Positions 11,187 through 63,813 of a stretch of 64,000 nt of DNA are shown here, piece by piece. The notes under the pieces were generated by a model. The model did no database searches, was not told where the DNA came from, and saw nothing but the letters and a program-made list of their open reading frames with translations. The DNA is from a virus, in IMG/VR virus record IMGVR_UViG_3300032116_000082, positions 30,272 through 94,271 of that record. One strand, given 5' to 3'. How positions within the stretch are numbered: the stretch's first letter is position 1; each line of letters starts with the position of its first letter. The position numbers and the translations under genes are program-made.

Positions 11187-11221
11187 CTCCCCGTGACTCT
11201 AATAAGTCGAGTCACGGGGAG
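11187..11221. repeat. Perfect 13-bp inverted repeat enclosing the core of promoter A
   Basis: CTCCCCGTGACTC - 9 nt loop - GAGTCACGGGGAG. Confidence 0.9.
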
Positions 11222-11231
11222 CTGAGCGTAG
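11201..11231 (-). promoter_or_regulatory. Putative phage late promoter A
   Basis: Minus strand CTACG-ctcagctccccgtgact(17)-CGACTTATT. Confidence 0.65.
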
Positions 11232-11232
11232 G

Positions 11233-14200
11233 TTAGCGTCGGATATCGAAGGCGCTGCCTGCTCCTCGTAGTTCGTTCCGGATCGCGTCAGCCACTAGGG
11301 CCGCTACCTTCTGCTCATCCTGACCAGGAGCCGCATTGACCGTGATATTCATGGACACATTTCCGCCGCTGCTCGAGCTGTTCGCACCAAACGGACGGAA
11401 CGTCGGCACCACAAAGCCCGTCGGGACATTCATGAACCGGCTATCGAGCTGCAGCATCCGCGTCTGATTCTCAACCGCTTGAATCTGCTGTCGCGTATTG
11501 CGTTCGATGAGTTCCAGCGCGGTGATCTGCTTTTCGCCGTCCTCCACATTCTTCTTGAGCAGGCCACCAACCAGACCACCAAGCACACCACCAATAGCAC
11601 CACCCACCGGGCCGAGCGGTGTCATCGTCCCAATCATGGCCCCTATCGAGGCCCCTTCCTGGGCGAAGTTGGCGTCCTTATACGGGGAGTTGTTGTTGCC
11701 GATCTGCCCACCGGCCAGGGAGCCCGCCAGCACCAAGGCCGCTTCCCCAGCGGACTTCCAGGAACCCCCGCGAGAACTGGTACTGATCGACGAATTGCCA
11801 CCGCGCGTCCCCTGGGCATCCATGGTGCTCGTGCCCAGTGTGACGCCGACGCGATCAACCGGCGTCCCGCCGGACAGCAACGCCCCACCAGCGGCTGCCG
11901 CCGCTCCAGCTGCCGCTGCGGCCGTACCCTCGGCACCAGCCCCTGCAACTCCCCCGCCCACCGGACTGATGTTCGTGGCGCTCAGCGCCCCTTGCAGGGC
12001 GTTTCGTAGTTCGATCGAGGCATCACGCACGCCGTTCCGGAATCCTGCCTCGATGTGGGTTTCCGTCGTCAACGCCCCGTTATTGAAGCCGTCACGGAGC
12101 ACCGAACCAAGTACACCCGTTTCACTGAACGCCCGACGCATAAAGACATCGACCAAACGAGCCTGTGCCGCCTGGCCCATGGCCTCGAACATCTGGTTGC
12201 GCCCTTCCACATTGAAATTCCGATACGACATCAACACATTGCGCATCGGATTGGTCATGTCCTGGACCAACTGCATCGCCTCGTCCTGGCGACGACGCGT
12301 CAACTGACCATCCAGCGTGGCGACCGTATTATACTGGGCGGCCATGCGTTCCCGATCGGCCGTTGACTGCGTGTTGGCAAAATCCCGCCGAGCCTTCGCG
12401 AGCGCCTGGTCCTTCGGCGTGCCGTCAGGCATCAGGTTGGCCTCGGCGAGCGCGGCATCGCGTGCAATCGTCGCCTGGGCGATCTGATTATTATAGGCCA
12501 GCTGGGCGAGTGCCTGCTGGGAATTCAACGTGACCATCGGATTCCGCGGATCGAGCTGCTGCAAGGCAAAATCCCCCTGCAACAGCGCCTGCTCTAGCGT
12601 GAACCGCCCCTGGGCATTCGCTCGAGCATTGTCCGCCTGTACCTGAATCTCGTTACGCTTCCTTTCGCGCTCGACTTCGGCGAGAATCATGTCGTCAAGG
12701 ACCTTGCGCGCCTTCTCCCGGCGCTCGGCCAGCGTGCCCTCGAGTTTGGCAAGTGCGTTCAGCTGTTCTTTGGTCTTTACATCGCCAAAGGCACCCAAGG
12801 CATCCAGAACGTTTTGCAGCTCCTTCGCGGCGACCTGCAGTTCCTCCGGACTATCCGACCGCAGCCCGAACGAAATGACGTCGGTCAGCCCCTTCTGCGT
12901 CGCCGCCACATACTGCTGCCGCATCGCATTGAGCTTTTCGATGTCCCGCTTCCGTCCACCGCTCAGCGCAGCGATCACCGCGGGATCATTGGCGATGCCT
13001 GCCCCAAGTGCGCCGCTTCGGACACCGCCTTCTTCAACTTGAATCTGGCGCAGGACCTCAGCATCTGCACCAACTGCCGTGCCACCCGACAACACGCTCG
13101 CTGCCAGCTTCGCACGATCCGTCAGCAGGCGAATCGGCACCTGATCCATTCCAATCAACATCTGCCGAGCCGCCTGCGCCCGAGCACCGACCGAGTCAAA
13201 CCCCGTACCGTATTGCGCCGACAGCCGCTCTTCCGTACCGATCTCCGCCATACGCGACGCAAACTGCATGATCGGCTCGAACATCCGATCCCGGATACTG
13301 AAGTCGAGCGCTTTAGAGGTAACCGCTGCCGCCTGAGACGTACGCGTCAAGCTGTCGTTCAGCTTGAGTAGACGGTCCTTGTACTCCTTCATCCCCGCCG
13401 TTTGGATATTGATGGCCTCGGCGGTCTTCATGAGTTCCGCGCGAGCCAAATCTACCGCTTGCTGGAAGGCCTCGACAAAGGCACCACCAGGCGTTGCGGC
13501 CTCACCCACCGTCCCCAGTCCGCGCTGAATGGCCTTGATCCGCTGATCGCCGTCGTTGCCAACGGCTTTGTTGATCACACCGATAAGGTCCGCGGCCAGC
13601 TGCCGCTGATTGCCCAGACGATAGTACGCTCCGGACAATTCACCCTGTTGCTGCATATTCAGGTTACCGGCCTGTGCAGCTGACTGAATAACGGCCTGCG
13701 GAGTAATGGTCTGATTTGACTGACGGAGCCGCTCTTCAGCCGCCTTGAGCTGAGACCGCTGGTTGGCATTTACGAGCAACTGTGTACGAGCGTACTCATC
13801 CAGCTGCTGCAGCTCCTGACCAAACGTGAGCCTCCCAGCCATGTCGGCAAACGTACCACGCGTCCCTGGGGCTCGTAGATTGTTGGCAAACATGAACTGC
13901 TGCCCAGCGTAGCTATACTGCTCAAAGAAGTCATTAAAGGAAAACCGATTGGTCACCTTCACCCGTCGGCCGGAGCCGGGCATACCATTGTAATCAACCA
14001 GCATCTCCTGTTCAGACGAGTTCTTCAGCGTCTTCATCAAATCACCGAAGGACTTGTCCACCTCGGAGAACAAATCAGCAAGGTCCTTGCGAAGACCAGA
14101 CGTCATGGTATCTGGTACCGCGAGGCCGTACGTTGCCGTTGAGCGGACCAGCGCCAGCGCCTCCGCCGCAAGCGCAGCCGGATCGCCGATGTTAGCAAAT

Positions 14201-17200
14201 CCAGGTAGCGCCGCGCTCAGGTTCTTGACAAGCTCCTCGAGCGTCCGATCATACTGCTGATTTTGCGGCAGCTTCCCTCGGTCAACCTGATCCTGGACCT
14301 GACCCGCCGCCGAAAGGAACGCCGTGCGGACCTGGCTGGACAGTTCGTTCGTGTCCATCCCGTACTGGGTTGCCCGCCGGGAATATTCCTGGAAGAAGTC
14401 AGATTCGCGGAAGGTCTGCAGGTCGAATTCATCCGGCGTACGGACATCAAACTGATCTTGACGATTCTGGAACCACTTCAAGATCCCCACAATCACCGCG
14501 ACTCCCGCAGCGATAGCGGCGATCGGCGCAGCATACCCAGCAACGCCCGCAGCGAGACCAGCGCCTCGGACCGCCGCACCACTCAGGAAACCACCGCCAG
14601 CACCAGACGCAAATTGCATCAGCCGCGGGGCCAGCGCGGATCCAATTCGCGCAACCGCGAAGCTGGCACCAGCCGCCGTCAACATTCCGGCAGGACTCGA
14701 TAGGCCCTCACCAGCAGCAGCGCCCGCACGCAGTCCGGTCTTGAGCAGGCTGGCCACACCGGTGTCGTTGAACAACGTCGAGGCAAGCTTCGTGAGGGAC
14801 GTATTGAACTGCGCCAGTGAGGCGGATACGGTATCCATGCGCAGCTTGACACGCTCTTGCGTGTCCCCGTAAGCCAGGGCGCTCTCGTTTGCGACCTTGA
14901 GGACCTTCGTGTTGTAGTCGTCGAGCAATGCCGCCGCCACGTTCGACTGACGGGCACCCGCGAACGTCGTCAGCAGCTGCTGTGCCTTGACCGTATCGCC
15001 GCTAGCCTTGAGCTCCTGATACCGGTTAGCAATATCTCCAAGAATGTCCTGCAACGGACGCAGCTCGTTCGGGTTATCCCCCGCCAGGTTAATCTTAAAC
15101 TGCTCCTGCAGCGCCTTGGCGACCTCAGGAGCACCGAGACGAGAGATGATGAACCGCAGGGACGTGGCCGCCTGCTCGCCAGTGACACGCGTCCGTTCAA
15201 TGATCGCCGTGGACGCACCGATAACCAAGTCGAGGGCGTCGACTGCGCCCAGGGCCTGTGGCTGCAGCTGTTGCGCGAGCGAGCCCGCCCGCTGGATTGC
15301 GTTGGAGAGGTCCTGCGCACTGACCGCGTACTGCGACTCAATTCGGGAAATACGATCCAGAATATCAAACGCGGTGACCTGCCGGTCCGTAATGTTCTGG
15401 ACCGCGATGAGCATTTCGGTTGCCTGCTGCGCATCAAGCCCGGCGCCAATCTGGGCGGCCAGCGAGGCCCGCGTCAGGCTGATCGTTTCATTGGGGTCCG
15501 CACCCGTCTGCGCAAACAGCTTGGCGGAGCGCATCGATTCCTGGACGGACACCCCGTATTCCGTAGCGGCGCTGAAAACGCCCGAACCGATCGCGGCAGC
15601 CTGACCGCCCGATCGGGTACTCAGCACACCTTGAATGTTCTTCAAGTCCGTTTCAAACTGCACCGCGGCAGCCGATGCCTGACGAATCTCGTTCGCGATC
15701 GTGTACAGTATTCCACCCGCCGTCATATAAGCGGCGAGGTTCTTGAACTTATTGACCACGCGGTCCATCATCGATCCGCCAGCTTCCGCGTGATCAATGG
15801 ACGCCTGCGTCACCTTCAGCAGGGCGTTGTACAGCTTGCCCAACTCGCCGTTGAGCTGCCCGTACTTTGCCTTGAGCTTGTCGACGGAGCGCTCGGCCTG
15901 TGGAACGTTCAGGTCGTCATACCGCTTCCCAATGAACTCCTGCAATCCGGCACGAGACTGCTCCAAGCTCTTGCGACGCGCCTGAATCCGTGGATCATCG
16001 CCTGTTAACAGGGCTGATTCGGCATCAATCGTTCGAAGCTTCTTCTCTGCATCCAAGATGGACCGATACTGATCACCGAACGCGTTACGCGTACGCGCGG
16101 CATCGATGACAGCCGTCGCGGCGGCAGACACCTCATTGTTCCGTCCGGAGAAGAACCGAGGATCGGAAGAACTCATCGCGCGGGCGTTCATCGCAAACGT
16201 CTGCATCAGTGCATCCATCTGCGCACTGTTCTGGGCAATCTGGCGCGAGGTGGTGCGCGTGGACATCTGCGCACCCACCTGGGCATCGAACGTGGCCAGA
16301 AGGTCCTGCGCACGCATCTGGGAATTGCCGATCTGATTCCGCCCACGCAGGATGAGCTCCCGCAGGACCGCCGGATCCGTCCCAAGGACAGGAGCGGTTC
16401 CAGACAATGCCGGGCTGCCGGTCAGTGTCGGCATCGTGTCGTCATACCGGACACCACGACCGCCGCCGTATGCCTGGCGATTGATCAGCCGGTCCAGCTC
16501 GCCCTTGGTCTTGATCTCCTCACGGGACAGCCGATCGGCGTTCTTATCTGCCAACGACGCCCCAGCCAGCCCACGCGTCGTCGCCAACGCATTGACCTTC
16601 TCCAAGGCTGCCGCATACGGCTTAAGAACTTCCGCCAGACGCTGGAACTCCTTAATGACCGGGTCAAACTGTACGGTCGCCAGCTCCGACATCGTCTTGT
16701 TAATGCGGGCCAGAGCGCCTTCGACCCCGTTCATAGCGTCCAGGAATTGCTTGGCGGCGGTCGTCTCGGCGGACATGGTCTGGCCGAGTTCGTTGACACC
16801 TTGCAGCGGATTGTCGAGCAAACGCGAACGGACACCGCCCTTCCGGACATAGGCCCGCTCCTTGGGATCCAGGAGCGCCCCGTCCATGATGTCGCCACCA
16901 ACGGCCATCGGCGACGTGCGATAGTAGTAGCGCCCGCCGAACTCCAGCTCACGCTGCCATTCAAGCATCTGTTCGCGCCGATAATCCGTGAAGTTCTTGG
17001 GATCTTCACGTGCCATGGTCTCATATCGCCGGAACATCTTCTCGGCAAAGGCCCGGCGCTGCTCCGTCTGTGGAGCAAACTCACCACCACGACTAATGAA
17101 CCCACGAAGCCACCGCTCACGAACCTCGCGATCCGGCACGTCGCGGTAACCGTCCATGAACGGCGCGGTATCAATGTCCAGGTTGGGATTGAAGGTCGGC

Positions 17201-19212: not shown

Positions 19213-19226
19213 GACGATATCCTCGG

Positions 19227-20342
19227 CTACCGAACGGTCAGCAAATCATCCAGCGCTTTCGTCAACTCCCGGTCCAAATCCAACAGGTCTTCCGCATGAA
19301 ACTGCCCGTTGTTATTGAACAAGAAGTTCATCGGTTGCGTACCACGTAACAGCAGTCCGACATTCTCATTGTTACGAGGCCCATAGTGCCAGGTGGGTTC
19401 CTTGTTTGCACCAGGATTTCCCGCCGTTTTCCGCCGCGCACCCGTGCCAAATTCCAAGTGCCGCCAAAAGCTTTTATAACGGGAACTAGTCGGCATACCC
19501 GTCAACATATAAGTCGCAGATGGAGTCGTCAGATCATCGACGACATTCATGGGGCCAAGGCCCACTCCCGCCAGGTTTCCGACTCTCCAATCCTGCACAA
19601 AATTGGCGTCGGTGATAATGCTCAGAAGCGCGATCATCTGACGGCGAAACACATTACCGGTCTTGAGGCTGAACGTATGCGATCGATACGTCTTCCCCTC
19701 AGGGCTCTTCTTGAGCTGCTTTATCATGCGCTCGTTGAGCTTCGTCAGCCGATCCCGAAGCTCCGCCGCACGATCCAAATCACCAGACACCTGTGCGTCG
19801 TTTAGACGATCCATGGTGCGGGCAATGGTGCCTTGTAACCCCACATCCTCCATACGCTTCTTGATCTGCTGGCTTGCAGGGCGCTCGACCCCCTGTTCTT
19901 TCAGCACCTGCATCTCGAGCGCCTTAGTCATATTCGCCAAATACCGCGCACGAACATTCTTTGCCACCGAGCGAAGGACTGCGACTTTCAGAATCCGCCG
20001 CACCACCTCATCGCCCTTTAACAAGTGCTGAAGGCCAGCAGCCGCACCATCAAAACCGGACGACGAAAAGGAGAACCGCACCTTAATCGTGAAGGAACCT
20101 GGAGGACTGGCAACCCGGAACGGTGTCTTTTGAGTGGCCTGAACCGCGATCTGTTGCTGCCGCTGTTCCGACGCCTGCGCGCCGCGACGCTTGGAGCGCT
20201 CAACCCGCTGACGACGATACTCCTGATACCACTGCTCACGGTTGTACTGCGGGCGAGGAAACTCCGGCGGCATCGGCTGCGACCGGAGCATCCCCTTGTC
20301 CATATTCCACTCGTCTAAGTCATCCGGCGGTGCCATACTCAC
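19227..20342 (-). CDS. Putative neck/tail-completion protein (HK97 gp10-like motif), about 370 aa
   Basis: FWRHLEFGTG...GTQPMNFL resembles the gp10/virion-morphogenesis signature. GTGA overlap with the stop of the frameshift extension. Confidence 0.5.
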   Translation of the reverse strand: MSMAPPDDLDEWNMDKGMLRSQPMPPEFPRPQYNREQWYQEYRRQRVERSKRRGAQASEQRQQQIAVQATQKTPFRVASPPGSFTIKVRFSFSSSGFDGAAAGLQHLLKGDEVVRRILKVAVLRSVAKNVRARYLANMTKALEMQVLKEQGVERPASQQIKKRMEDVGLQGTIARTMDRLNDAQVSGDLDRAAELRDRLTKLNERMIKQLKKSPEGKTYRSHTFSLKTGNVFRRQMIALLSIITDANFVQDWRVGNLAGVGLGPMNVVDDLTTPSATYMLTGMPTSSRYKSFWRHLEFGTGARRKTAGNPGANKEPTWHYGPRNNENVGLLLRGTQPMNFLFNNNGQFHAEDLLDLDRELTKALDDLLTVR

Positions 20343-20698
20343 CCCTTAAACTCTGGGACCCCTGCGAAATCCGCTTGCACGTTCTTCTTACCGGACTTGA
20401 TCGCCATTTCCCGCGTGTAGTTGGTGTACCACCGGTCAAGCTCCTCGTCGTCCTCGATGATATGCTCGTCCGGTTTATCAGACGGCAGCATGTTGTTGAG
20501 GGAGTCGTAAAACCGGGCGTACCCCAGCAGGGTTAACTGACCATCGTCTATGTCGTAGCCAGAACCGAGGCCGAAGAGCCGGAGTCCGTCTCCGCCGCAG
20601 GACTTGAATCGAGCCTGGAAGTCGGCGGAGCGGGCGATTCGTCGGATGGCTCGGACTCCCCACTGGACGAAGTCGTCTCCCCCACGTCCGCCGCGAGA
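20339..20698 (-). CDS. -1 frame C-terminal extension of the tail assembly chaperone (gpGT-like); fused product about 433 aa
   Basis: 119 open codons in the -1 frame from the slip site: SRGGRGGDDFVQWGVRAIRRIARSADFQARFKSC...LGYARFYDSLNNMLPSDKPDEHIIEDDEELDRWY...EFKG*. It fills the gap to the next gene exactly and is not in the ORF track. Confidence 0.8.
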   Translation of the reverse strand, partial: SRGGRGGDDFVQWGVRAIRRIARSADFQARFKSCGGDGLRLFGLGSGYDIDDGQLTLLGYARFYDSLNNMLPSDKPDEHIIEDDEELDRWYTNYTREMAIKSGKKNVQADFAGVPEFKG

Positions 20699-21639: not shown

Positions 21640-21697
21640 AAAGCCCCCGAATAGTCGGTTCGTGTACCCCGCGCCTCTACGTGCGCTATCCATCGAG

Positions 21698-21729
21698 AAT
21701 AAGTCGATTCTTTGGCAACCAAAACGAAA
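21698..21729 (-). promoter_or_regulatory. Putative phage late promoter B
   Basis: Minus strand TTTCG-ttttggttgccaaagaat(18)-CGACTTATT. The upstream element overlaps the terminator U-tract. Confidence 0.7.
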
Positions 21730-21753
21730 CCGCCGCCCTCAGGGGGCGGCGGC
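21721..21753 (-). terminator. Rho-independent terminator after the tail tube gene
   Basis: GCCGCCGCCC-cctga-GGGCGGCGGT followed by TTCGTTTT. Confidence 0.85.
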
Positions 21754-21780
21754 TCGTTCCGGCGGGTGTGGTGACAAAAC

Positions 21781-23146: not shown

Positions 23147-23779
23147 TTACGCCTCGTAACGGAGGCGCGCGTTCAACGTGAATTCAAAAGCTCTGCTTTC
23201 CGGCCCCAGCGGGTAAATCAAGGTGCCAACTGATGTCCGCTGTAACTCCATCAATCCTACTGATGCCTTCGTACCGGCATCATGATCCGCCACCGTGAGA
23301 AACTGACTCTCGTCAAACGCCACGCGGAGCGCATCTACGAGGTACAGCTGTTCACCTTGGTCCCGCGCCAGGCCGTACATATCCAGAGACGCAAACCGCT
23401 CACGCTCCCTCGATCCGAGGCCCAACAGACCGCCGTTCCCCTCATGCTGGACCTGCAAGACAATACTAGGCACCGGCATGTCCTCTGGGGAAAGGACAGC
23501 ACCATCGCTAGTAGGTCGAGTGGGAAACTGCGGAAACGAAAAGTCATCGTTCCGTATCGTCAGGATCCCGCGACTATCGTTATACCGGGAAGCCACTGCC
23601 GAATCCGACAGAAGAATGGCCGCCTGATTCGCCTGGTATTGAGGATAGACCCCGTCCGGCGTCTGGAGGGCATCCAGGGTCGGCCAGTACAGCAAATAGT
23701 CGTGGCTCAACAGCGTACTCGCCAACACCTCGGCGACGCTGTTGGTCAGATTAGTCAGGCTGTACGCTGCGAGCGCCAT
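23147..23779 (-). CDS. Putative tail terminator protein (210 aa)
   Basis: Immediately upstream of the tail tube gene. PVPSIVL...LGLG...SLDMYG pattern. Confidence 0.55.
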   Translation of the reverse strand: MALAAYSLTNLTNSVAEVLASTLLSHDYLLYWPTLDALQTPDGVYPQYQANQAAILLSDSAVASRYNDSRGILTIRNDDFSFPQFPTRPTSDGAVLSPEDMPVPSIVLQVQHEGNGGLLGLGSRERERFASLDMYGLARDQGEQLYLVDALRVAFDESQFLTVADHDAGTKASVGLMELQRTSVGTLIYPLGPESRAFEFTLNARLRYEA

Positions 23780-23969
23780 ACCGGATACACTCCTTCGCCA
23801 AGTTCCAAACCCGACGAATCACCTGGTTGCGAAGCTCATTGAACTGGACCGGGTGGGAGACCTCGGCAGGATCCAATGCGGCCAACTCTTCCATCGTGCC
23901 CATGAGCAGCTTGATCGTGGCGTTTACCTCCGCCTCGATCCGTTTCTGCTCTTCCGTACGTTCCATCAT
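23751..23969 (-). CDS. Hypothetical protein (72 aa)
   Basis: MMERTEEQKR...; TAATG coupling to the upstream gene. Confidence 0.6.
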   Translation of the reverse strand: MMERTEEQKRIEAEVNATIKLLMGTMEELAALDPAEVSHPVQFNELRNQVIRRVWNLAKECIRYGARSVQPD

Positions 23970-25703: not shown

Positions 25704-25734
25704 AATAAGTCGGTGTCAGCAGGCAAAAGCGGGA
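25704..25734 (-). promoter_or_regulatory. Putative phage late promoter C
   Basis: Minus strand TCCCG-cttttgcctgctgacac(17)-CGACTTATT. Confidence 0.65.
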
Positions 25735-25791: not shown

Positions 25792-25824
25792 CAAACAACG
25801 AAGGGACCGGCGTTGGCCGGTCCC
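25792..25824 (-). terminator. Rho-independent terminator after the MCP
   Basis: GGGACCGG-ccaacg-CCGGTCCC followed by TTCGTTGTTTG. Confidence 0.8.
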
Positions 25825-25847
25825 CCGTTGCCTGCGGAGTGCCGCTA

Positions 25848-29180: not shown

Positions 29181-29212
29181 AATGAGTCGTGATCAGCGCC
29201 GCAAAAACGCAG
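29181..29212 (-). promoter_or_regulatory. Putative phage late promoter E
   Basis: Minus strand CTGCG-tttttgcggcgctgatca(18)-CGACTCATT. Heads the protease-decoration-MCP operon. Confidence 0.7.
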
Positions 29213-29230: not shown

Positions 29231-29250
29231 GTTCCACTGTCGCGGGTTAC
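29231..29250 (-). repeat. Direct repeat, copy 1 (GTAACCCGCGACAGTGGAAC)
   Basis: Near-identical to 27366-27386. Confidence 0.6.
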
Positions 29251-35150: not shown

Positions 35151-36192
35151 TCGCGTCGTCCTCTACCGGCTCTTGTACCTGCGTATCGTCGATCGGTACT
35201 TCCTTAAGGAATCCCTTCTTTGCCAACCACGACTCAATTTCGTCGATCTGGAGCCCAGCATAATTCCTGGTGCCACATTTCGCACACTCACAGGTCCGAC
35301 ACCGGGTCGCACCAAACAGCCCGACGTCGTCGAGCTGATAACCGCCCATGTTTGACCGCGGGCTCGGCGTGTGGTACATCTGAAACAGGACCAGCAGCTC
35401 CTCGGCAAGCCAGCGCTCACGGAGCTCAATCGCATTGGTCTCCTCCAGGCGCCGTACCGCCTCCCCGATAGTCCCGCCTTCCTTCTCCTTCTGCTGCTTA
35501 GCCAGCTGGTCCGGGTGGATGTTCAGCGCCTTTTCCAGCTCAACGATCTGCTTCGTCAGCTGCTGGATCTGAAACTCCTCGGTCTTACCCTTCTGGTCCT
35601 TGGCCTGCCGGAAGCGGATGCGGTCAAGAAGCAGCGTGAGATCCAGGAGCATGTCCAGCTTAGACTCCGACGCGACGGAGCGAAGCTGCGGGAAGTCCTT
35701 GAGGTAGGCGTCCTTCAGCCGCTCACGTCGCTCGAGCTCGGCGGAGGTGAAGAACACCAGCGGGTCGTCACCATACGTTGCTTCCCCCGCCACCTTCTTC
35801 CGATATTCATCCGGAAGATTCTTGTCTGTGGCCTGCGCCTCCTTCTTGGCTTTAGCTACTTCCTTTTCACGAGTCTTCCTGGCTCTCCGCTTCTCATCGG
35901 CCGTGACAAGGGGCGCCATCGCATCTAGGTCAAACCGACACGCAGAACGTACACGGGCCGTGAGCGTTGAAGTCGCCATGGCAAACCACGGCGATTTGCC
36001 ATCCGAAGGCAGCACACCCTTCAAACAACAATCCAAATAGTACTTGGCCGCTGCAACCGGCTCCTTCGTATTGCGCGTCTGGGCAAACCAATCGGCGATT
36101 TTTTCGATCGCCTCCTGATATCGTTCCGGCGCAATGTCCGAACCGACCTCATAGATCAAAGGCTCCCGCAGCGTTTTGCCGCCACGTGGCAT
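35137..36192 (-). CDS. Putative terminase small subunit/packaging protein (351 aa) with a C-terminal Cys cluster
   Basis: Immediately upstream of and overlapping terL. Helical core LEKALNIHPDQ; CRTCECAKC. Confidence 0.5.
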   Translation of the reverse strand: MPRGGKTLREPLIYEVGSDIAPERYQEAIEKIADWFAQTRNTKEPVAAAKYYLDCCLKGVLPSDGKSPWFAMATSTLTARVRSACRFDLDAMAPLVTADEKRRARKTREKEVAKAKKEAQATDKNLPDEYRKKVAGEATYGDDPLVFFTSAELERRERLKDAYLKDFPQLRSVASESKLDMLLDLTLLLDRIRFRQAKDQKGKTEEFQIQQLTKQIVELEKALNIHPDQLAKQQKEKEGGTIGEAVRRLEETNAIELRERWLAEELLVLFQMYHTPSPRSNMGGYQLDDVGLFGATRCRTCECAKCGTRNYAGLQIDEIESWLAKKGFLKEVPIDDTQVQEPVEDDAIAHD

Positions 36193-36584
36193 TACTCCTC
36201 CTCCTCTTCGAGATTCCGCTTGAAGTGCTTTGACACATCGTTGCGACTGCTTTGGAGCGATACCGGCGGCATAACCAGGTCAAAATCGCCAGCGACGTCG
36301 CGGACCAACTGCTCCCCCCGCTCGAGTCTGGCGTCGAGAGATTCAGTGTTGTAGATCCGCTCGCGCCGTAAATAGTCAATCATTCGGAACTTGAGCGCTT
36401 GGCGAATGTAAGCATCCGGATTGTCCTTGGCCCGACCAGGATTACAGTTCCAGAGGGCAATCAGCCCCTCCTGGTACAGATCCTCGGCCAAGGTGTCGTT
36501 TGTCTGGGCCAACTTCCAAGATATGGCACGAATTACCAGATCGTACTTTGGCAGGAAGTAGGTTTCGAACTCCTCATTGGTCAT
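36192..36584 (-). CDS. Stand-alone sigma70 region 2 protein (130 aa), putative subunit of a split sigma factor
   Basis: YDLVIRAISWKL...AEDLYQEGLIALW...AYIRQALKFRMIDYLRRE, then ESLD and an acidic tail. No region 4. GAGGGAG RBS before ATG 36584. Confidence 0.88.
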   Translation of the reverse strand: MTNEEFETYFLPKYDLVIRAISWKLAQTNDTLAEDLYQEGLIALWNCNPGRAKDNPDAYIRQALKFRMIDYLRRERIYNTESLDARLERGEQLVRDVAGDFDLVMPPVSLQSSRNDVSKHFKRNLEEEEE

Positions 36585-36616: not shown

Positions 36617-36648
36617 ACTAGGTCGTACTTTTGTGATTTCAGACGAAA
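36617..36648 (-). promoter_or_regulatory. Putative phage late promoter H (variant), upstream of the sigma region 2-TerS-TerL-portal operon
   Basis: Minus strand TTTCG-tctgaaatcacaaaagta(18)-CGACCTAGT. Confidence 0.6.
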
Positions 36649-36686
36649 ATCGGGGGCTGGGGAGCTGTTTTCGTCGATTCTACGCG

Positions 36687-36947
36687 TTATTTGACTGATT
36701 CTGAGAGTCTTCGAATGGCGGCGGTGCGGATATATCGTATGGCAGCCTCGGACAGCGGCTTTCCCCGCATCTTTTGTCCTACATACCAGCCAATCGCGGC
36801 ATAGGTCGGCGGCCACGAAGCATTTGGCCACGGCCAATCCGGCGGATGTCGAAGCCCAAAGACCAATTCGACGACCAGGCGATGTTCGTCGGACAACGTG
36901 ATCAACAGCTGCTCGACCGCAATGCGGTTGATTAGATCGTCTTCCAT
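36687..36947 (-). CDS. Stand-alone sigma70 region 4 protein (86 aa), putative subunit of a split sigma factor
   Basis: LITLSDEHRLVVELVFGL...TYAAIG...LSEAAIRYIRTAAIRRL aligns with RpoD region 4 (LTAREAKVLRMRFGI...TLEEVG...VTRERIRQIEAKALRKL). TGATG-coupled to ruvC. Confidence 0.85.
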   Translation of the reverse strand: MEDDLINRIAVEQLLITLSDEHRLVVELVFGLRHPPDWPWPNASWPPTYAAIGWYVGQKMRGKPLSEAAIRYIRTAAIRRLSESVK

Positions 36948-44640: not shown

Positions 44641-44724
44641 AGGGCGATCAGGTGGTGAGGGTCCTGCCTGATTGACGACTTACGCGAACTCCTTACATTC
44701 GCCCCACAACCACCGGATAAACCC

Positions 44725-53169: not shown

Positions 53170-53201
53170 AATAAGTCGCTGTAACGCTGGGAAATACGAA
53201 G
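53170..53201 (-). promoter_or_regulatory. Putative phage late promoter D
   Basis: Minus strand CTTCG-tatttcccagcgttacag(18)-CGACTTATT. Confidence 0.7.
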
Positions 53202-53497: not shown

Positions 53498-53517
53498 ACC
53501 GACTCCTTTTCTATGGA

Positions 53518-54543
53518 CTAATACACTTCAATCTTAACCCGTCCCGCGCCTCCCTGCCCTCCATTCCAATATTGATCTCCATTCGTACCGGTACCACCCC
53601 CAGAACCACCAGCCCCAGGCGCACCACCCGTTCCAGCAACTGTGTAGTTACCTATCCCACCCGACGCACTGAATCCTTGAAAGACAGTGCGATCTGCGCC
53701 GTTGCCGCCCAAAAACTGAATTGACTTATAAGAGTAACTTGGATTGATGGTCACAGGTACCATACTACCCGCGCCTCCATTAGAGAAGCTTGTAGTACCA
53801 GGCCACAAACGAGGGCCTGAAATAGCCTTTCCGGTCGCGGTTGTACCTACACTAGGACGGGTTTCCGTATACTGACACCCTTCATATAACACTTCCGTAT
53901 TTGTATACCAACCCGAAGGCCAACCCCCCGACGCACTTATATATACTGAATAGTCATTGTATGCCTGTTGAAGCTCCTCGTTCCACAGCTCTTCTAAAAT
54001 GTAGACCTGCGATGTACCACCAATATATCCGTTTGGCGGTACAGAATTAACCGAACCGCCAGAGCCCCCAGCGCCAACAATAATCGTCAAGGGACCGGCG
54101 TTATGCAAACCGCTTGCCTGATAGTCGCCGACAGCCGCTACTCCCGCACCTGCACCGTACGCGGGCTGTATCCAGCCAACATTATAAAAATTTCCATCAC
54201 ACGACTCGTTGTAGTCGTAGTAATACGATCCTGCGCCACCACCGCCGCCACCAATAACAAATATACGTAGCAAAGTCGCTCCCGCTGGTACCGTATACGA
54301 ATATGTCCCTGGCGTACTCCACGTCTGCGTGGCCAGCAACGGAGGCGTTGCGGAGTGGTTGTACCCACGCCACTCGCTCATGGCGTGCGGCGCGGATACG
54401 TTCGGTCGAATCGTCGAGTTCGTATTAATGTTTGTGTAATTTCCAACACTAGCGCTCATGAGACTAATCGACGCCGAGGCCGAACGACCAAGCTCGGTGT
54501 TGATTTGGCTCATGGACAACGAACCAGACGACGGGAGTGCCAT
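53518..54543 (-). CDS. Glycine-rich adhesin/receptor-binding tip protein (341 aa)
   Basis: MALPSSGSLSMSQINTELG N-domain; TPGTYSYTVPAG...IGGGGGG...IIVGAGG...GGAGRVKIEVY Gly-rich domain; visibly AT-richer DNA. Confidence 0.75.
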   Translation of the reverse strand: MALPSSGSLSMSQINTELGRSASASISLMSASVGNYTNINTNSTIRPNVSAPHAMSEWRGYNHSATPPLLATQTWSTPGTYSYTVPAGATLLRIFVIGGGGGGAGSYYYDYNESCDGNFYNVGWIQPAYGAGAGVAAVGDYQASGLHNAGPLTIIVGAGGSGGSVNSVPPNGYIGGTSQVYILEELWNEELQQAYNDYSVYISASGGWPSGWYTNTEVLYEGCQYTETRPSVGTTATGKAISGPRLWPGTTSFSNGGAGSMVPVTINPSYSYKSIQFLGGNGADRTVFQGFSASGGIGNYTVAGTGGAPGAGGSGGGTGTNGDQYWNGGQGGAGRVKIEVY

Positions 54544-54553
54544 AGGTCAGCCC

Positions 54554-54925
54554 TTAGTTGGTCGCAGGTGCCGGTTCAGGAGCCGTAGGCTCAGGAGCCA
54601 CGGGCTCAGGGGCCCACGGCAGCGGCTTTGGCGTCAGGGCGAGCTTCTCGAGCTCCTTCGCCACCACGTAGGCGACATGCGCCCGCACGTTGTCCAGCGA
54701 GGAATCCGCCTCAACCCATGACACAAGCTGCGCCTCCGTCAGATCCGCAAAGTCCGTGAAATCGTCCGGATCCGCCGCGTCGAACTTGACCGTAGCCGGA
54801 AGCTCAAACGTCGCAGTGCCGTCCACACCCTTCACGACGACATCGAGTTCCTTGACCACGTCCGCGAGATCGTCCTGGGTACCAACCCGAGCCCCGGTTA
54901 CCGTGTAGCTGAATGTAATCGCCAT
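54554..54925 (-). CDS. Fibre-associated small protein (123 aa)
   Basis: Start at MAITFSYTV (GGAGGA RBS); FTDFADLTEAQLVSWVE...LPW motif. Confidence 0.7.
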   Translation of the reverse strand: MAITFSYTVTGARVGTQDDLADVVKELDVVVKGVDGTATFELPATVKFDAADPDDFTDFADLTEAQLVSWVEADSSLDNVRAHVAYVVAKELEKLALTPKPLPWAPEPVAPEPTAPEPAPATN

Positions 54926-54935
54926 ACGTCCTCCC

Positions 54936-57900
54936 CTACTGGTTGAGTAGCGCAGCAACCTGCGCCTTGAGTGTGTCAATCTGCTCTTGCTGTTCCTTGA
55001 TCGCCTCGATGAGCAGAGGCACAAGACGATCGTACTTCACGGTCAAGTAGTTCTCCCCAGACTTGCTGGAGATCTCGCCAGTCTCCGGATCCGTATGGAA
55101 GTCCACCGGGGCCAAGGTGACCGCTTCCGGCAACACCGCCTGGACCTCCTGCGCCGAGAGACCCACCTGCTGCTTGTCGTTCTGATACCCCAGCGACTTG
55201 GCCAGGGCGTTCTCCACGTACAGGAACCCGCTCAGCTGCTTGACCTTGGCAACCGGCGACGCGATCGCACCAACCCGCGTCTTGAGCCGCTCGTCCGAGT
55301 AGTACGCGGTGATGTCTCCAGTGGCTGCGATCTGGTTCGCAACGTAGAACGCCTTCGCGTTGTATACTCGAACCCAGGTGCCGTCCTCCATGTAGACACC
55401 ACCGCCCCACTGGTTACTATACCAACCCGTGTTGCCAGTTGATCGGAACCAATCGCTGGCGTTCCAGGACGCGGCATATACGTAATCGTTGGACGGGTTG
55501 AGGTAGACCTCTGCCGTGCCGTAGACCGAGTTGCCAGAGCCCCACAGCATCTGGTAGTTGGCGTTGGAGTTGTTGCTATAGTTGATGGTGACCTGGCTAG
55601 CCGTCGTAGCACTAGACGCCGTCGTAGCGCTAGTCGCCGTCGCGGCGTTACCGGTAATGTTGATGCCCCACGTACCAGAGGCTCCAGAGCCGGTCAGCGA
55701 CGGTGCGTAGCTGGTGTAATTGCTGGTCGTGATAGCGCCGATGGCCGATGCGACCGCTTGCGGCGTGTAACTCCGAATGTAGTAATCGCTGGAGTTGAAC
55801 CCTGCAAAGTACGCCAGCCCAGAAGCGTTTCGTTCCGCCCCACCACCACTGGTGTAGAAGTAATTGTTCGCGATATATCCATTACTGTCGCGCTGAACGA
55901 TCGTGTTCGCGCCACTCGACGCATTCTGCGTATACCCGTTCAGCGACCCAGCGGAACCTGTAACGTTAATACTCCACGTACCAGAGGCCCCAGATCCAGT
56001 CAGGCTCGGGCTGTACGAGGTGTAATTACCAGAGTGCAGAACTGTTCGCCACGCGGTAAATGTTGCCCCGGAAGTATGCCACCCGCGGAACCACAAATTG
56101 TCATTTTGGTAACCACCATAGATCTGCAAACCGGTATCGATACCGCGGGCAACGATCAACTGCCCATAACTACCGCCTGGCGAATTGGTCGGTGTAGCTT
56201 CGGCGTTGAAGAATCCAGTGGACAGGATAGAATTGAAATCCGTAGTAAACCGAGTGCCTTCTTGTGACGACGGCAGCGTCGGCTTGCTAGTCACATTGGA
56301 CCAGGCGACAGAGCCTGCACTGCCCGTCACATTGATCGACCAAGTCCCAGAGGCGCCGCTGCCAGTCAGCGATGGGCTGTAAGACGTGTAGTTTCCAGCG
56401 TGCAGGACCTGATTGCTGTCTTGCTTGAGTGCGCCAACTGACACGTTTACGTCGCTGCCAGTAAACACCAGCGTGGCGCTTCCGCCGCGAATGTTCAACG
56501 GCTGATAGGTGCTGGTGCTCCGGTTGTACGAGAGGACGTATCCCGAAGCACCGGAAAAGCCGACTTCTAGCGCCGAGCCCGTATTGCCCGCGCCGTCCGT
56601 GTACCAGCCGCTGAATCGCCCCTGCCCAGACGAGGCGATGTCGGCGCTGAAGGACCGCTGCGAGGTCGTGGCGGCATTCCCCGTGATATTGATGCCCCAC
56701 GTGCCAGACGCACCTGAGCCAGTCAGCGTCGGACTATATGACGTGTAGTTACCGGCGTGCAGAACTTGATTGCCGCTCTGCTGCAAGGCCACCTTGCTAT
56801 TGACGGCGCTGCTGCTCAACTCCAGCCAGTTGTTATTATAAGCGGGCCCTATCCAGAGAATAGACAGCGCGTCCGCACCACCGTTAGCTCCAAACCCACC
56901 GCGGTTCGTGCCTGACGAACCAAGGAAGTACAGACCAGTCGCCCAGCCGCCAGTGTCGCCCTTTATGGAGATCAGGCCGTTGGCCGTATCAACAACAATT
57001 GGTCGCGCACCTGTAAAGGTGTCTCCGGCCTTGTTTACCGGGGTATACCCAAGGGCGGTCGTCACCATGCCAGACGTGATGCCCGTGATATACCCGCTGG
57101 GATTCGTGCTGTTGTATGGGGTGTACCCGAGCGCAGTCGTGACCTGGCCAGAGGTAATGCTGGAGACAGTCGCAGCATTACCCGTAATGCTGATGCCCCA
57201 CGTCCCAGAAGCTCCGGAGCCGGTCAGACTTGGGCTGTAGGACGTATAGTTGCTGCTATCAAGTACAGTCCGCCACGCGGTCCACGAGCCAGTCCCGCCG
57301 ACATTACTAGGATTGCCGGACCGCGTGTAGAGCGTGCCTGTAGAGTAGCTGCCATAGATCTGGGTGATCGTATCCGAGCCGCCATAGATGACAAGCAGCT
57401 GCCCATAGTCCGACGGACGATTCGCTTCCGTGTTCTGAACGCGGTAGAACCCCGAGGTGGTCAGGGTGTTGAGATCAACACCACCAGTGGAGCCGCGAGC
57501 GATGTTCGACACCGTCCCCGCATTCCCCGTGATGTTGATGCCCCAGTTGCCAGATGCGCCGGAACCCGTCAGCGACGGTGCATAGCTATTGTAGTTCGAG
57601 CTATCCAGCTGCGTACGCCAGGCAGACCAGCTGGAATTGTACGCACGCGTGAACGTCTGGCCGGAAGACAGATGTGTCGCAAGCTGACCAACGACATTGC
57701 TCTCGTTACCGTACGTAACAATGGCATAATGCTCATTAGTCGGATTGTTTGCATTCGGATCAAACCGATACGCGCTGCTGACAAAGTTAGTATTGGGATT
57801 TGTCTGGCTGCTCGATGAGCGCAACATAAACCCAGTATATCCGGAAGTGATATATCCGCTGGGATTCGTGCTGTTATACGGCGTATACCCGAGGGCCGTC

Positions 57901-60900: not shown

Positions 60901-63725
60901 CTCCCGCCCACCGTGACGACGGCGTTTCCGTTCTGCGTCAGGCTTCCGGTCACCGCCAAACTGCCAGGAATGGCCACTGCGCCCGCATTCGAGATCGTCA
61001 GGCGATCGGTAAACGGAACGGTCGTGCCTGCAACGCCAACCGGTGCCGTCTTAAAGGCCAAGCCGCCATTGGCAAAGTCCAGCTGGACCGCAAAATCGGC
61101 ACGATCATACGTATACGAACTACCGGTGGTCGTCGTACGATACCCTTCACCGATCGTCCCGTAGCCAAGATCACTACGACCCAGGGTGATGTAGTGAAGA
61201 ATCGAGTACGTCGACGGTGCGGTATGGCCGATCCACCGACCCCCGCTGTAACTCGACACTACCTGGCCGTTGAGATTCGAGGTGCCTGAGACCGTGACAC
61301 TGCTCAGCGTCCCGAGCGACGTAAGGCTCGAGTTCACCACCGTGCTGTTAAGCGTCGTCCCGGACAACGTTCCGGCAGGAGCCACCACCTGCACCGTCGT
61401 GACCCCAGTCACGAGACCCTTAGCGTTCGTCGTAACCACCGGGACATTCGAGGCATCGCCGAACGTCCCGACGTTGCTATTGACCGTCGCCAGCGTCAAC
61501 GCCAGCGCCGTGGTGCCAGACCCAGACACGTCACCGGTGACGGTAATAGACTGATTGCCCGTCAGGTACGCGTTGGTATCCAACGACCAGGTGTTCGCCG
61601 CGGTCTTTTTGAGGAATCCCGTCGTTCCCGTCAGCGCGGCGATGGCCGCAAGATCCGGATCATACGCCTGCACATCGCTTCCGATGGCCACGCCCAGGTT
61701 CGTGCGGGCCGTCGCCGCATCCCCCGCTCCGGTACCACCACGTGCGAGCGCCAGCGTACCAGAGGAAATGTTCGAGGCGTTGGTGGTGTCCGTCGTGGCC
61801 GAGGCAACAAGCCCAGACACCGCGCCTGAGGCAATCGCGATCGGCGTCGAGGCCGCCGCCGTCAGCTGACCCTGCGCGTTGACCGTGAACGTCGCCACAC
61901 TCGAGGCGGAGCCATAGCTCGCCCCAGTGACTCCCGTATTGGTAATGCTGAACGTGTTGCCCGTCTTGGTGAGCCCGGTCCCAGCGAACAGCTGATTGCT
62001 GCTGAAGAGCTGCGAGAACACCAACGGGGTGGTGCCCAGCGTGATCGGGGCATCCGTCGACAAGAACCAGCCCGTGTCCGCCAGCGTCGCGCCGGACTCC
62101 ACGAACAGGAAGATGCCAGGCGTGACCGCTCCTGAGCTATCCGCATCCGCCGCACGTACCCAGGTGCCGTTGGCACCCGTTCCGACGGACTGCACGACGT
62201 AAATGCCGTTCTGCGCTCCATTCGCCTGCGCGCGCACCAGCACGCGATCATTTGCCGCCAGGGTCACTCCGTCCACACTACTCGGAGCTCCGCCAGCAAG
62301 GCTGACGTCGCCGGTGGTTGCCACCCGCGCGGAGGCCTTGAAGTCCAGGTTGCCCAGGGCCAGCAGATCGACGTAGCCCTTATTGACAACGTCGGTATCG
62401 GCCACGGGGTTGGCGACATTGGTCAGCCGCTGCCCATTGAAGGATACCGGGCTCGTCGGCACCGCCATCTGATCCAGCCGATTCGTGCGAACCTGCGTGT
62501 CAAAGTCCGAGATCTTGGCCGAGGTGAGCACCGGAATATCCGTTGCCGCCAGCGTCGTCGCCGCGGTGACCTGGCCCTTGGTGTTGACGGTCAGCTTGGT
62601 ATAGGTCCCAGCCGTCAGCCCCGCCTGGTTTGGCAAGGTGAGGGTAATGGCCGTCGTACCAGAACCCGACACATCTCCCGTAACGTTGATCGTCTGGTTT
62701 CCGGTGAGGCGCGCATTGACCTGTCCCTGCAGCTTCTGAACGGCCTGCAGAATAGAATCGGTCGCAGCCACCGAAGTGTTCGTGCCAACGGCATAGCCCG
62801 TCAGGAGCTTTCCGGTGACCGTCGCGTCCGCAATCGCCACCGTGATCGCCGTCGCACCGCTCCCAGAAGCATCACCAGACAGTGTAACCGTCTGATTGCC
62901 CGTCAACCGGGCATTGACCTGGCCCTGGAGTTTCTGCAGCGCGACCAGAATCGAGTCCGTCGCCGTAAGCGCGGAATTCGCGCCGACGACATATCCGGTC
63001 AGCAGCTTGCCCGTCACCGTCGCATCGGCCAACGACGTCGTGATCGTTGTGGCGCCGCTACCCGTGATATCCCCGCTCAGGGTGATTGACTGGTTGCCGG
63101 TCAGGTATGTGTTCGTATCGAGCGCCCAGGTCGACGCGCCCGTCCGCTTCAGGAATCCTGTTCCGGTAATCGCGGCAATGGCGTCCAGGTCGGCATCGTG
63201 GGCTTGGACATTCGTACCAATCACGAGGCCCAGGTTGGTGCGTGCATCGGCAGCCGTCGCGGCGCCCGTTCCGCCCCGCGCCAGCGCCAGTGTCCCCGAG
63301 CTGATCTGATCCGCATTCAGCGCCGTCAGCGTCGAGCCGTCCGTGCTGTTGACCCAACTCGTCCCGTTGTATCGAATAAACTGACCCGCGGCGGTCCCCG
63401 CAAAGGCGATGTCGGTCAGATTCGTCAGCGCCAGCGACGGCGTCGCCGCCCACGACAGCCCGCCGCTGCCGTTGGTCTTGAGGTATAGGTTCGCAGACTG
63501 CGTTGCCGGGAACGTGTAGGTAATGCCGCCCACCGTGAGCGTCCCGCCCAGGGTGGTCGCACCCGTCACGGAGAGCGTTGCCAGCGACCCAAGATTGGCC
63601 GCGGTGTACCCCGCGATCTGAGAAACCGTCAGCTTACGAGAAGAATTCCCTTGAGTCGTCTCGAGCTGATCCGTTCCAGAAATCGTCGAGGCACTCGGAA
63701 GATCTATAATACGAGCGTTGGCCAT
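54936..63725 (-). CDS. Very long tail fibre (2929 aa) with a C-terminal peptidase S74 intramolecular chaperone
   Basis: T/G/S/A-rich repeats. Knob modules such as [13 protein letters not shown]...YGQLLV. C-terminal YYSDERLK...[16 protein letters not shown]...[14 protein letters not shown] plus coiled coil. Confidence 0.93.
55645..59310 (-). repeat. Nine full and one partial copy of an approximately 33-aa (about 100-bp) fibre repeat
   Basis: VLHxxNYTSY(S/A)[14 protein letters not shown](N/S)ITG(N/S)A copies near 59260, 58460, 57980, 57560, 57220, 56720, 56360, 55990 and 55690; partial copy near 58770. Confidence 0.9.
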
Positions 63726-63781
63726 GTCTACCCGTCCTGACCCGATGCGGGCGTAATCGGTTGCGCCGTTACCCTGGCTCT

Positions 63782-63813
63782 TGTAAGTCGAAGATTTACA
63801 CGGGAATGCGCAG
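63782..63813 (-). promoter_or_regulatory. Putative phage late promoter F
   Basis: Minus strand CTGCG-cattcccgtgtaaatctt(18)-CGACTTACA, upstream of the fibre gene. Confidence 0.65.

Follow-up and report, generated by a model that had tools for sequence, protein, structure and literature searches.

Two-box sites and sigma genes of the phage

The window analysed here comprises 64,000 nucleotides (positions 30,272 to 94,271) of the 94,271-bp virus record IMGVR_UViG_3300032116_000082, which represents an uncultured phage. An element of two boxes, with the consensus YTKCG, 17-18 bases and CGACYTAYT, recurs in it between genes. The original prediction had listed seven minus-strand copies, occupying seven of the eight large intergenic gaps; every one of these sequences was found at its place and the count of gaps holds:

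s1, 63782..63813, minus strand: CTGCG-N18-CGACTTACA, 56 nt ahead of the ATG of a 2929-aa fibre gene
s2, 53170..53201, minus strand: CTTCG-N18-CGACTTATT, 66 nt ahead of the appendage block, which opens with a 116-aa gene
s3, 36617..36648, minus strand: TTTCG-N18-CGACCTAGT, between the sigma region 4 and sigma region 2 genes, 32 nt ahead of the region 2 ATG
s4, 29181..29212, minus strand: CTGCG-N18-CGACTCATT, CG followed by a T-tract, 40 nt ahead of a 585/598-aa gene that heads the operon with the capsid protein
s5, 25704..25734, minus strand: TCCCG-N17-CGACTTATT, 61 nt ahead of a 244-aa gene and downstream of the terminator of the capsid gene
s6, 21698..21729, minus strand: TTTCG-N18-CGACTTATT, upstream box overlapping a terminator T-tract
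s7, 11201..11231, minus strand: CTACG-N17-CGACTTATT, after the tape-measure gene, with the next ATG 99 nt on

The sense orientation of these copies is strict, and their 9-mers precede the start codons by 32-99 nt, in agreement with the predicted distance of about 30-100 nt; over the genome, sites at operon heads lie 21-99 nt ahead of start codons. The lone gap of more than 80 nt that is devoid of the motif (44641-44724) is located upstream of the primase-helicase gene, that is, before the replication operon, as had been noted. Other apparent gaps above this length (20343-20547, 23780-23968, 40149-40322 and 54544-54935) resemble small or mis-called coding regions, and three of the four are conserved in a relative. 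Therefore, 44641-44724 is the only empty gap. A simple sigma70 consensus scan detected no sense-strand promoter in it and no excess of such promoters anywhere.

Several motif copies are positioned directly 3' of intrinsic terminators, several upstream boxes coincide with terminator T-tracts, and at about half of the sites a T-tract follows just downstream of the -35-like box. Two of the terminators are:

21727..21755, minus strand: intrinsic terminator with a 12-bp stem, the T-tract of which is the upstream box of s6
25801..25826, minus strand: intrinsic terminator that follows the capsid gene, with the s5 box about 67 nt further downstream

Additional copies, complete or partial, occur inside and outside the window:

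s8, 19508..19516, minus strand: CGACTTATA, core-only, without the CG box
s10, 23510..23541, minus strand: TTTCG-N18-CGACCTACT, within a 210-aa ORF (23147-23779)
genome 22099-22107: further copy ahead of the lysis block
genome 1340, plus strand, outside the window: further copy ahead of an SNF2 helicase gene
genome 14650, plus strand, outside the window: further copy ahead of a class II RNR gene, conserved in three lineages

It is uncertain if s8 is a genuine copy: the ATG (19496) that follows 11 nt on opens a small conserved frame directly preceding the tape-measure gene, and in the related genome G001 a CGACTTATT copy occurs about 50 nt off, not at the orthologous position. Site s10 is kept in G001 and in a second relative, G002, but its sequence is coding; either an internal promoter or a chance resemblance preserved by the protein sequence may account for it.

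The statement that all copies precede late genes holds within the window and fails for the whole genome because of the plus-strand copies before the SNF2 helicase and RNR genes. Most structural proteins stayed unnamed in searches of Pfam and PHROGs, thus the "late" status rests on a tape-measure match, a YonB-like capsid match, a weak portal match, an endolysin and gene order. The terminase had no match in a PDB profile search.

Three genes of the phage are related, or possibly related, to sigma factors:

36687..36947, minus strand: sigma region 4 half, 86 aa; ends the replication/nucleotide block as its last cistron
36192..36584, minus strand: sigma region 2 half, 130 aa, ECF-like, with an acidic tail; first cistron after s3, followed by a 351-aa gene, a putative large terminase and a putative portal
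genome 11432-12172, plus-strand block: sigma-like protein, 246 aa

The region 2 half matches Pfam Sigma70_r2 (E=1.7e-8), and ECF-type NCBIfam models align to it by their N-terminal half alone; its family comprises 52 clusters, in which every protein is 120-152 aa long. The region 4 half gave no Pfam, NCBIfam or PDB-profile match. Its AlphaFold2 model (pLDDT 89.4) retrieved mostly isolated sigma region 4 structures or whole sigma-factor chains among the top 50 Foldseek matches, and the identity of the 86-aa protein as sigma region 4 is thus confirmed by its predicted fold. Regions 2 and 4 therefore reside on separate, conserved polypeptides, and the pair is kept in five lineages.

Recurrence and conservation of the element

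The pattern CG-N17/18-CGACYYANW has 11 matches on both strands of the entire record. Nine of them fall in sense-oriented non-coding DNA (6.7 kb) and none in antisense orientation, whereas 2000 dinucleotide shuffles of this non-coding DNA contain 0.12 matches on average and never more than 3. The exact CGACTTATT is present four times in the record, each time on the minus strand and between genes, and one exact 9-mer common to four gaps was matched in only 4 of 300 shuffles. All nine intergenic cores have the CG box upstream at the fixed spacing, with a chance of about 0.16 per site; therefore the upstream box stands out significantly from the GC-rich background, a point at which the original prediction had seen a possible failure. 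The CGAC tetramer is invariant in the 11 sites of this phage (G000) and in every orthologue. By itself, k-mer enrichment did not pick the core out; it surfaced GTAAGAA, TGATTCG and ACGGAGG instead. The first was rejected as a second motif, being mostly confined to the Lys/Arg-rich ends of small ORFs, and the other two were rejected for want of significance after correction, so that this analysis yielded no second conserved motif class able to serve the split sigma.

Four related phage lineages carry the element at matching places, which makes five lineages together with this phage. When the orthologous copies are compared to G001 and G002, identity amounts to 97% in the core and 81% in the upstream box, but only to 47% in the spacer and about 51% in the flanks (upstream box versus spacer, P=5e-6 for the G001 and G002 footprint), and the length of the spacer is unchanged in eight of nine orthologous comparisons. 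Conserved boxes and a divergent spacer whose length is nearly always kept are the signature of a -35/-10 promoter. Site s6 illustrates this trend: its boxes and the 18-nt spacer length are retained in both relatives, while the G002 spacer matches at 1 of 14 positions. Other sites vary more. The s2 orthologue of G001 reads ACGCT..-N18-CGACCTATT, s5 is kept in G001 and absent in G002, and both s9 and the s3 copy of lineage L024, each conserved in lineages, have TGCT in place of TCG/TGCG, a point against the promoter reading.

More distant relatives, with region 2 proteins 45-50% identical and a GC content of 51-57%, have the motif ahead of both the region 2 gene and the head operon; s4 is retained in G001 as well as in L024/L025, whose region 2 protein shows 45% identity. 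The order of the region 4 gene followed by the region 2 gene is retained in all five lineages, always with a motif copy at the place equivalent to s3 between the two. The DNA-reading segments of both sigma halves are invariant across lineages in parallel with the invariant boxes, including the recognition helix of region 4; the residues PLSEAxIRY of the region 4 half are invariant in five lineages. Co-variation of motif and sigma among relatives, which had been proposed as a check, was not seen; the two are co-conserved. Megablast with 20 kb of the sequence matched none of the deposited phage genomes, and no prophage relatives of the terminase were found among 185,579 species genomes, so that this search pointed to no host.

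A split sigma factor as the candidate reader

We consider that the signal before nearly every structural-gene operon of this phage and its relatives is most likely a split-sigma promoter. With moderate confidence we further class the elements as phage-specific promoters of an ECF-like (group 4) type that the split sigma reads, the region 2 gene itself standing behind one of them. The role of the -35 element would fall to the upstream box (roughly YTKCG, often with a short T-tract) and that of an extended -10 element to the invariant CGAC together with YTAYT, and transcription would start a few bases past the 9-mer. The reader that we infer is the host core RNA polymerase equipped with the two-polypeptide sigma of the phage: the 130-aa region 2 protein would recognise CGAC and the bases that follow, and the separate 86-aa region 4 protein would recognise the upstream box. 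Since a promoter copy stands between their genes, the halves would belong to different transcription units, region 4 closing the replication block and region 2 being the first gene behind s3. Region 2 could first be produced by read-through and then boost its own promoter along with the head, neck, tail, fibre and lysis operons, restarting transcription after terminators.

The promoter reading is supported by the absence of the motif before the replication operon and from seven of nine plus-strand non-structural gaps. Two good copies, before the SNF2 helicase and RNR genes, are contrary to a strictly late role. Contrary to an ECF-type assignment, the upstream box YTKCG(Y) lacks the AAC typical of ECF -35 elements, and the distance of 17-18 nt from CG to CGAC is at or just past the long end of the ECF range, depending on where the -35 element ends. 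The suggestion that region 4 is actually used fits the fold of the 86-aa protein and a recognition helix that, like the upstream box, is invariant.

One could tentatively go further and join these elements into one scheme, which we regard as possible rather than probable: an order-permuted, linker-free, two-polypeptide ECF-type sigma that reads both boxes. The absent covalent linker between domains 2 and 4 may explain the tolerated spacing of 17/18 (perhaps 19). Halves encoded in successive transcription units would make late transcription dependent on both, as in an AND gate, which then reinforces itself through s3. Several promoters would in addition be built into hairpins that form in read-through RNA only; by terminating this RNA (s7) or hiding a ribosome-binding site (RNR site), the hairpins would leave as productive just those transcripts that the phage sigma initiates.

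One could argue that the promoters are read by a different sigma, either the 246-aa protein in a cascade of the SPO1 type or a host ECF sigma, and that the split sigma reads other, unrecognised sites or only a subset. This is somewhat unlikely in our view. The claim of cognate promoters is supported by comparison with regard to promoter-like boxes conserved with the gene pair, and is moderately probable with regard to the reader. The 246-aa protein resembles a full-length viral sigma: the ESM Atlas places it among viral clusters carrying Sigma70_r2/r4 (score 0.95-0.96), its C-terminus is region-4-like, and orthologues in G001 and G002 extend its occurrence to all three lineages represented by whole contigs, the only ones that a search for its relatives returned. 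However, it has no Pfam or NCBIfam match, its AlphaFold2 model is poor (pLDDT 64) and the Foldseek matches to sigmas are weak and mixed. In an SPO1-type cascade a single-chain phage sigma acts before the two-subunit one, and motif copies before the region 2 gene itself and before the RNR and helicase genes would fit such an earlier-acting factor. CGAC-type -10 elements do serve cellular ECF sigmas (PMC5758882). It would be unusual, as for the host, if a phage relied on one of its stress sigmas to express every structural gene. Against a different reader stand the failure of k-mer enrichment to reveal a second conserved motif class for the split sigma and the joint presence of motif and split sigma in two more distant lineages.

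Less probable still is that the 9-mer acts mainly in RNA, as a hairpin-presented loop motif for processing, termination, antitermination or translational control, or that it is the binding site of a non-sigma protein, such as an operator for a late activator or repressor. The RNA variant draws on hairpins, since perfect stems of at least 5 bp enclose 6 of the 11 cores (null mean 2.0, P=0.009). Several cores lie in hairpin loops, and two of these hairpins are conserved with compensatory or wobble changes, one of them at s7:

11187..11221, minus strand: perfect 13-bp hairpin, CTCCCCGTGACTC / GAGTCACGGGGAG, with the s7 core in the loop

It is kept in G001 and, with one U-G wobble, in G002, and is probably a terminator or a stabiliser for read-through RNA. 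The second hairpin, at the RNR site, has a wholly different stem with G-U wobbles in G002, and its 3' arm overlaps the Shine-Dalgarno sequence. The coincidence of several upstream boxes with terminator T-tracts also speaks for an RNA-level function. However, s1, s2, s3 and s5 have no convincing enclosing stem, the short stems of s4 and s6 are lost in G001, and Rfam 15 gave zero matches for the window at the gathering threshold. An RNA loop motif would moreover leave the second conserved box, at a fixed 17-18 nt across a spacer of free sequence, unexplained, and promoters could accommodate the hairpins if their spacer and early transcribed region also took on a folded form in read-through RNA. 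A functionless recurrence due to chance or composition, to which the 7-mer CGACTTA (by itself not over-represented genome-wide) and the 9-mer with 2 mismatches (131 matches versus 112 expected) could point, deserves practically no credence and is effectively refuted already by the nine sense intergenic matches against 0.12 expected and by retention in five lineages with boxes conserved far better than spacers.

Significance and comparison with known systems

The motif provides a concrete promoter consensus for a family of uncultured large phages (52 clusters of the region 2 protein in public data) and makes it possible to map their operons with sequence as the only input. Should the split sigma prove to be the reader, nature has carried out an experiment on how unjoined domains 2 and 4 cooperate at a -35/-10 promoter, and the phage would show late-gene timing through halves made from different transcription units. 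Such a compact, probably orthogonal sigma-promoter pair could serve synthetic gene circuits.

The closest promoter geometry is that of ECF sigmas. The autoregulatory promoter of B. subtilis SigX is TGTAAC-N17-CGAC, and its CGAC is a documented ECF -10 element, as the original prediction had stated; ECF promoters have spacers of 14-17 bp between elements and -35-proximal T-tracts (PMC5758882). The phage sites share with them the two boxes at a fixed distance, the CGAC core and, at about half of the sites, the T-tract just past the -35-like box. The region 2 half matches ECF HMMs, and a motif copy precedes the sigma's own gene as in autoregulated ECF sigmas. In contrast to ECF promoters, the upstream box is YTKCG and not xxAAC, the conserved -10 block has 9 nt (CGACYTAYT) and not 4-5, and 17-18 nt separate CG from the core; the presumed reader is made up of two polypeptides whose genes stand in permuted order, and no anti-sigma factor was identified for the phage. 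Promoters of the sigma54 and FliA types were ruled out on sequence by comparison with their consensus sequences.

Two-subunit sigmas that read -35 and -10 elements are SigO-RsoA of B. subtilis and Sig7-Sig8 of Tn916 (bioRxiv 10.64898/2026.10.01.756105). The phage resembles them in architecture by having regions 2 and 4 on separate proteins and a bipartite promoter; with Tn916 it also shares the setting of a mobile element and the positive autoregulation proposed here. Unlike in these systems, region 4 precedes region 2 with a promoter copy between the genes, and the context is that of late genes in a large tailed phage.

Among phages, a phage-encoded sigma function split over two proteins drives structural genes in T4 (gp55/gp33) and SPO1 (gp33/gp34), which the present phage would parallel; if the 246-aa protein is a sigma, the layout, with a single-chain and a two-subunit sigma, would be similar to the SPO1 cascade. 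T4 late transcription employs gp55, gp33 and the sliding clamp, of which gp33 does not read DNA, and T4 late promoters consist of an extended -10 element (TATAAATA) alone, with no -35. A T4-type promoter is ruled out here by the CG box conserved at fixed spacing in 9 of 9 intergenic sites. In contrast to T4, reading of a -35 element is suggested for this phage by the upstream box, conserved and fixed in its spacing, together with the genuine fold of region 4.

The two-box element and its distribution

All seven two-box sequences of the original prediction, each consisting of a CG-containing upstream box, a spacer of 17-18 nt and a 9-mer core, were found at their minus-strand positions. The window comprises bases 30272-94271 of a linear virus record of 94,271 bp (GC ~59%, 58% complete by CheckV estimate), for which megablast of 20 kb found no similar sequence among deposited phage genomes. 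Plus-strand genes are confined to one block of the record and the remainder is entirely minus strand.

Genes and motif copies of the record
Record 48-18709, plus strand: gene block including SNF2 helicase, integrase, RuvB-like ATPase, class II RNR and methyltransferase
Window: genes for AEP primase-DnaB helicase, family A DNA polymerase, tape-measure protein (phrog_4211, E=1.4e-24), YonB-like HK97 capsid protein (Atlas score 0.98) and portal (weak match)
Outside the window, far end of the minus-strand block: Amidase_2 endolysin
Window 63782-63813 (s1), 53170-53201 (s2), 36617-36648 (s3), 29181-29212 (s4), 25704-25734 (s5), 21698-21729 (s6), 11201-11231 (s7), minus strand: the seven two-box sequences
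Window 19508-19516, minus strand: core-only copy s8, ahead of a conserved small reading frame
Window 23510-23541, minus strand: complete bipartite match s10, within a coding region
Record 22099-22107, minus strand, outside the window: copy CGACCTATT, after a terminator and before a block ending in dUTPase and endolysin genes
Record 1340, plus strand, outside the window: CG-N18-CGACCTATT, before a small ORF and the SNF2 helicase gene
Record 14650, plus strand, outside the window: RNR site, CG-N17-CGACCTACT, 21 nt ahead of the RNR gene

Four exact copies of the 9-mer CGACTTATT are present in the record, all of them intergenic and on the minus strand; one exact 9-mer common to four gaps was seen in 4 of 300 shuffles, and this sharing taken alone is only suggestive. 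The count of the bipartite pattern is decisive for the observation: CG-N17/18-CGACYYANW is matched 11 times over the two strands of the complete record; 9 of the matches fall in the 6.7 kb of sense non-coding DNA and no match is antisense, against a mean of 0.12 bipartite (maximum 3) and 0.78 core matches in 2000 shuffles of the intergenic DNA. The original prediction would have failed had the CG box not been significant over a GC-rich background. CG stands at the correct distance in 9/9 intergenic cores, with ~16% expected by chance; therefore, this concern is answered. The consensus of 11 sites reads (C/T)T(G/T)CG(C/T), a T/A-rich stretch and CGAC(T/C)TA(T/c)T. The other apparent large gaps of the window resemble small or mis-called genes, therefore the claim that seven of eight gaps carry the element stands; the sole empty gap (44641-44724) precedes the primase-helicase gene.

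The element is strongly but not exclusively linked to structural and lysis genes. The proposal that all copies precede late genes has to be softened, given the copies before the SNF2 helicase and RNR genes. No copy was found in the remaining seven plus-strand gaps or in the gap ahead of the replication operon.

Several genes of the window deserve mention in their own right. A 371-aa ORF (19227-20342, minus strand), whose nucleotide similarity to the related phage G001 is gone over most of its length, is probably over-called; a conserved small protein (…RYKSFWRHLE…) begins at ATG 19496, immediately behind the core-only copy. An HNH endonuclease (phrog_5046; 30611-31003, minus strand) and a 454-aa protein (29247-30611, minus strand) that matches the phage glycosyltransferase family phrog_2170 are encoded in the stretch from the portal gene to the head operon. 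Two large appendage-block proteins (45764-47674 and 47687-49285, minus strand) contain a ubiquitin-E1 FCCH-like domain (Pfam PF16190; E=7.7e-9 and 7e-4), which is unusual among virion proteins. Downstream of the 2929-aa fibre gene follow a Gly_rich_2 protein and a DUF7936 protein (53518-54543 and 54554-55024, minus strand); the former, with a GC3 of only 0.49 compared to ~0.72 elsewhere, may have been acquired recently.

Conservation of the boxes in related phages

Four more lineages were found besides the source record. G001 (IMGVR_UViG_3300043427_003610) is collinear with it at 65-76% nucleotide identity, G002 (IMGVR_UViG_3300048586_000548; near-identical G003, 3300048587_000696) has a GC of 66%, and in the metagenome lineages L024/L025 and L026/L027 (GC 51-57%) the sigma region 2 protein is only 45-50% identical. 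Orthologous motif copies are present in G001 at s2 to s7, s9, s10 and the RNR site; G002 keeps s3, s6, s7, s10, the RNR site and one lysis-side copy, and s4 and s5 are missing. Copies immediately ahead of the region 2 gene and the head operon occur in L024/L025 (TTGCG-TTTT...CGACTCACT), and L026/L027 carries the exact CGACTTATT with CTGCG or CTACG at N17/18 ahead of the same two. At the region 4/region 2 junction of G002 (L012:8186-8926; G002rc 10825-10900) the core is separated from the conserved CGTCTG by 11 additional bases, and exactly 18 nt ahead of CGACCTAAT there is a new CG. Therefore, considering also the missing s4 and s5, the putative promoters turn over in this phage family.

In gapless, core-anchored comparisons with s7 left out, identity is 97% in the core and 81% in the upstream box (inflated in part, for the core and the CG, by ascertainment, since a pattern search had supplied the sites), 47% in the rest of the spacer, 51% in the 20 nt further upstream and 52% in the 12 nt downstream. 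The box differs from the spacer with P=5e-6, and its identity is still ~75% without both CG columns. Spacer length is unchanged in 8/9 comparisons, unlike the surrounding intergenic DNA with its many insertions and deletions; the spacer of s6 in G002 matches at 1 of 14 positions, yet its length is still 18 nt. Conserved boxes with a free spacer of fixed length are characteristic of paired boxes that a protein contacts, such as those of -35/-10 promoters, and the reading of the motif copies as promoters is well supported by this comparison.

Hairpins around the cores

A perfect stem of at least 5 bp encloses 6/11 cores (2.0 expected, P=0.009). Two hairpins are conserved, one with a 13-bp stem around s7 and one that encloses the RNR site; G001 does not keep the shorter stems of s4 and s6, and no Rfam match was found within the window. 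The RNR-site hairpin (CCCGTTGG/CCAACGGG; L009:14620-14680 of the whole record, plus strand) holds the motif copy of the class II RNR gene in its loop, and in G002 the stem is built from wholly unrelated sequence, G-U wobbles included. The 3' arm runs into the Shine-Dalgarno sequence (ribosome-binding site), and the hairpin may therefore keep read-through RNA from being translated. With transcription starting just past the 9-mer, the hairpins would be present only in RNA reading through from upstream; they would terminate or silence this read-through and leave promoter-initiated RNA open. Such a putative role as read-through silencers can reasonably be inferred and is compatible with the promoter reading.

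Candidate readers and known systems

Sigma-like genes of the phage
Window 36687-36947: region 4 gene (86 aa), directly upstream of the region 2 gene
Window 36192-36584: region 2 gene (130 aa)
Record 11432-12172, plus strand, outside the window: 246-aa sigma-like protein with a region-4-like C-terminus

The 130-aa protein matches Sigma70_r2, and ECF-type models are matched over the N-terminal half only; its family comprises 52 clusters with every member 120-152 aa long and an almost invariant 2.3/2.4-like segment, IRQ..KFRMID..R. HMM searches with the 86-aa protein gave no match. Its structural model is confident (pLDDT 89.4) and most of its top 50 Foldseek matches are to sigma factors, either as whole chains or as region 4 in isolation. 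The best of them reach probability 0.97-1.00 and target TM ~0.8, with E-values that are weak, as expected at 86 residues. PLSEAxIRY in the last helix region is invariant in five lineages. All five lineages keep the order region 4 to region 2, and in each a motif copy lies between the two genes or overlaps them. At s3 the upstream box doubles as the 3' arm of an inverted repeat of 8 bp (GACGAAAA ... TTTTCGTC; window 36642-36690, minus strand), which is kept in G001. The repeat is too weak for a terminator call, and transcription may therefore continue from the region 4 gene into the region 2 gene.

The 246-aa protein could read some or all of the sites: it has the region-4-like C-terminus, falls among viral sigma clusters in the ESM Atlas (0.95-0.96) and has orthologues in G001 and G002. 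Its HMM and structure evidence is weak. No motif copy was found ahead of its gene. The phage may have in this protein a second sigma of full length, in which case an SPO1-like cascade would result. Distribution among relatives does not separate the two candidates, and what links motif and sigma in related phages is co-conservation, not co-variation. The original prediction is confirmed and extended as an observation; of its interpretation the promoter part is well supported by the comparisons, and the split sigma as reader is the most economical reading, not a demonstrated one. Our confidence in the explanation is only moderate because of the 246-aa candidate, the co-conservation without co-variation and the sequence-only basis of the proposed promoter activity.

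The SigX autoregulatory promoter has CGAC as its -10 element, and in ECF promoters, whose spacers measure 14-17 bp, the -35 element is often followed directly by a stimulatory T-tract (PMC5758882). The phage sites similarly have CGAC, plus a T-tract at about half of them; unlike ECF -35 boxes, however, their upstream box is without AAC. Natural two-subunit sigmas are SPO1 gp33/34, T4 gp55/33, SigO-RsoA and Tn916 Sig7-Sig8 (bioRxiv 10.64898/2026.10.01.756105). A -35 box is missing from T4-type promoters; the phage element is therefore closer to the SigO-RsoA or Sig7-8 type.
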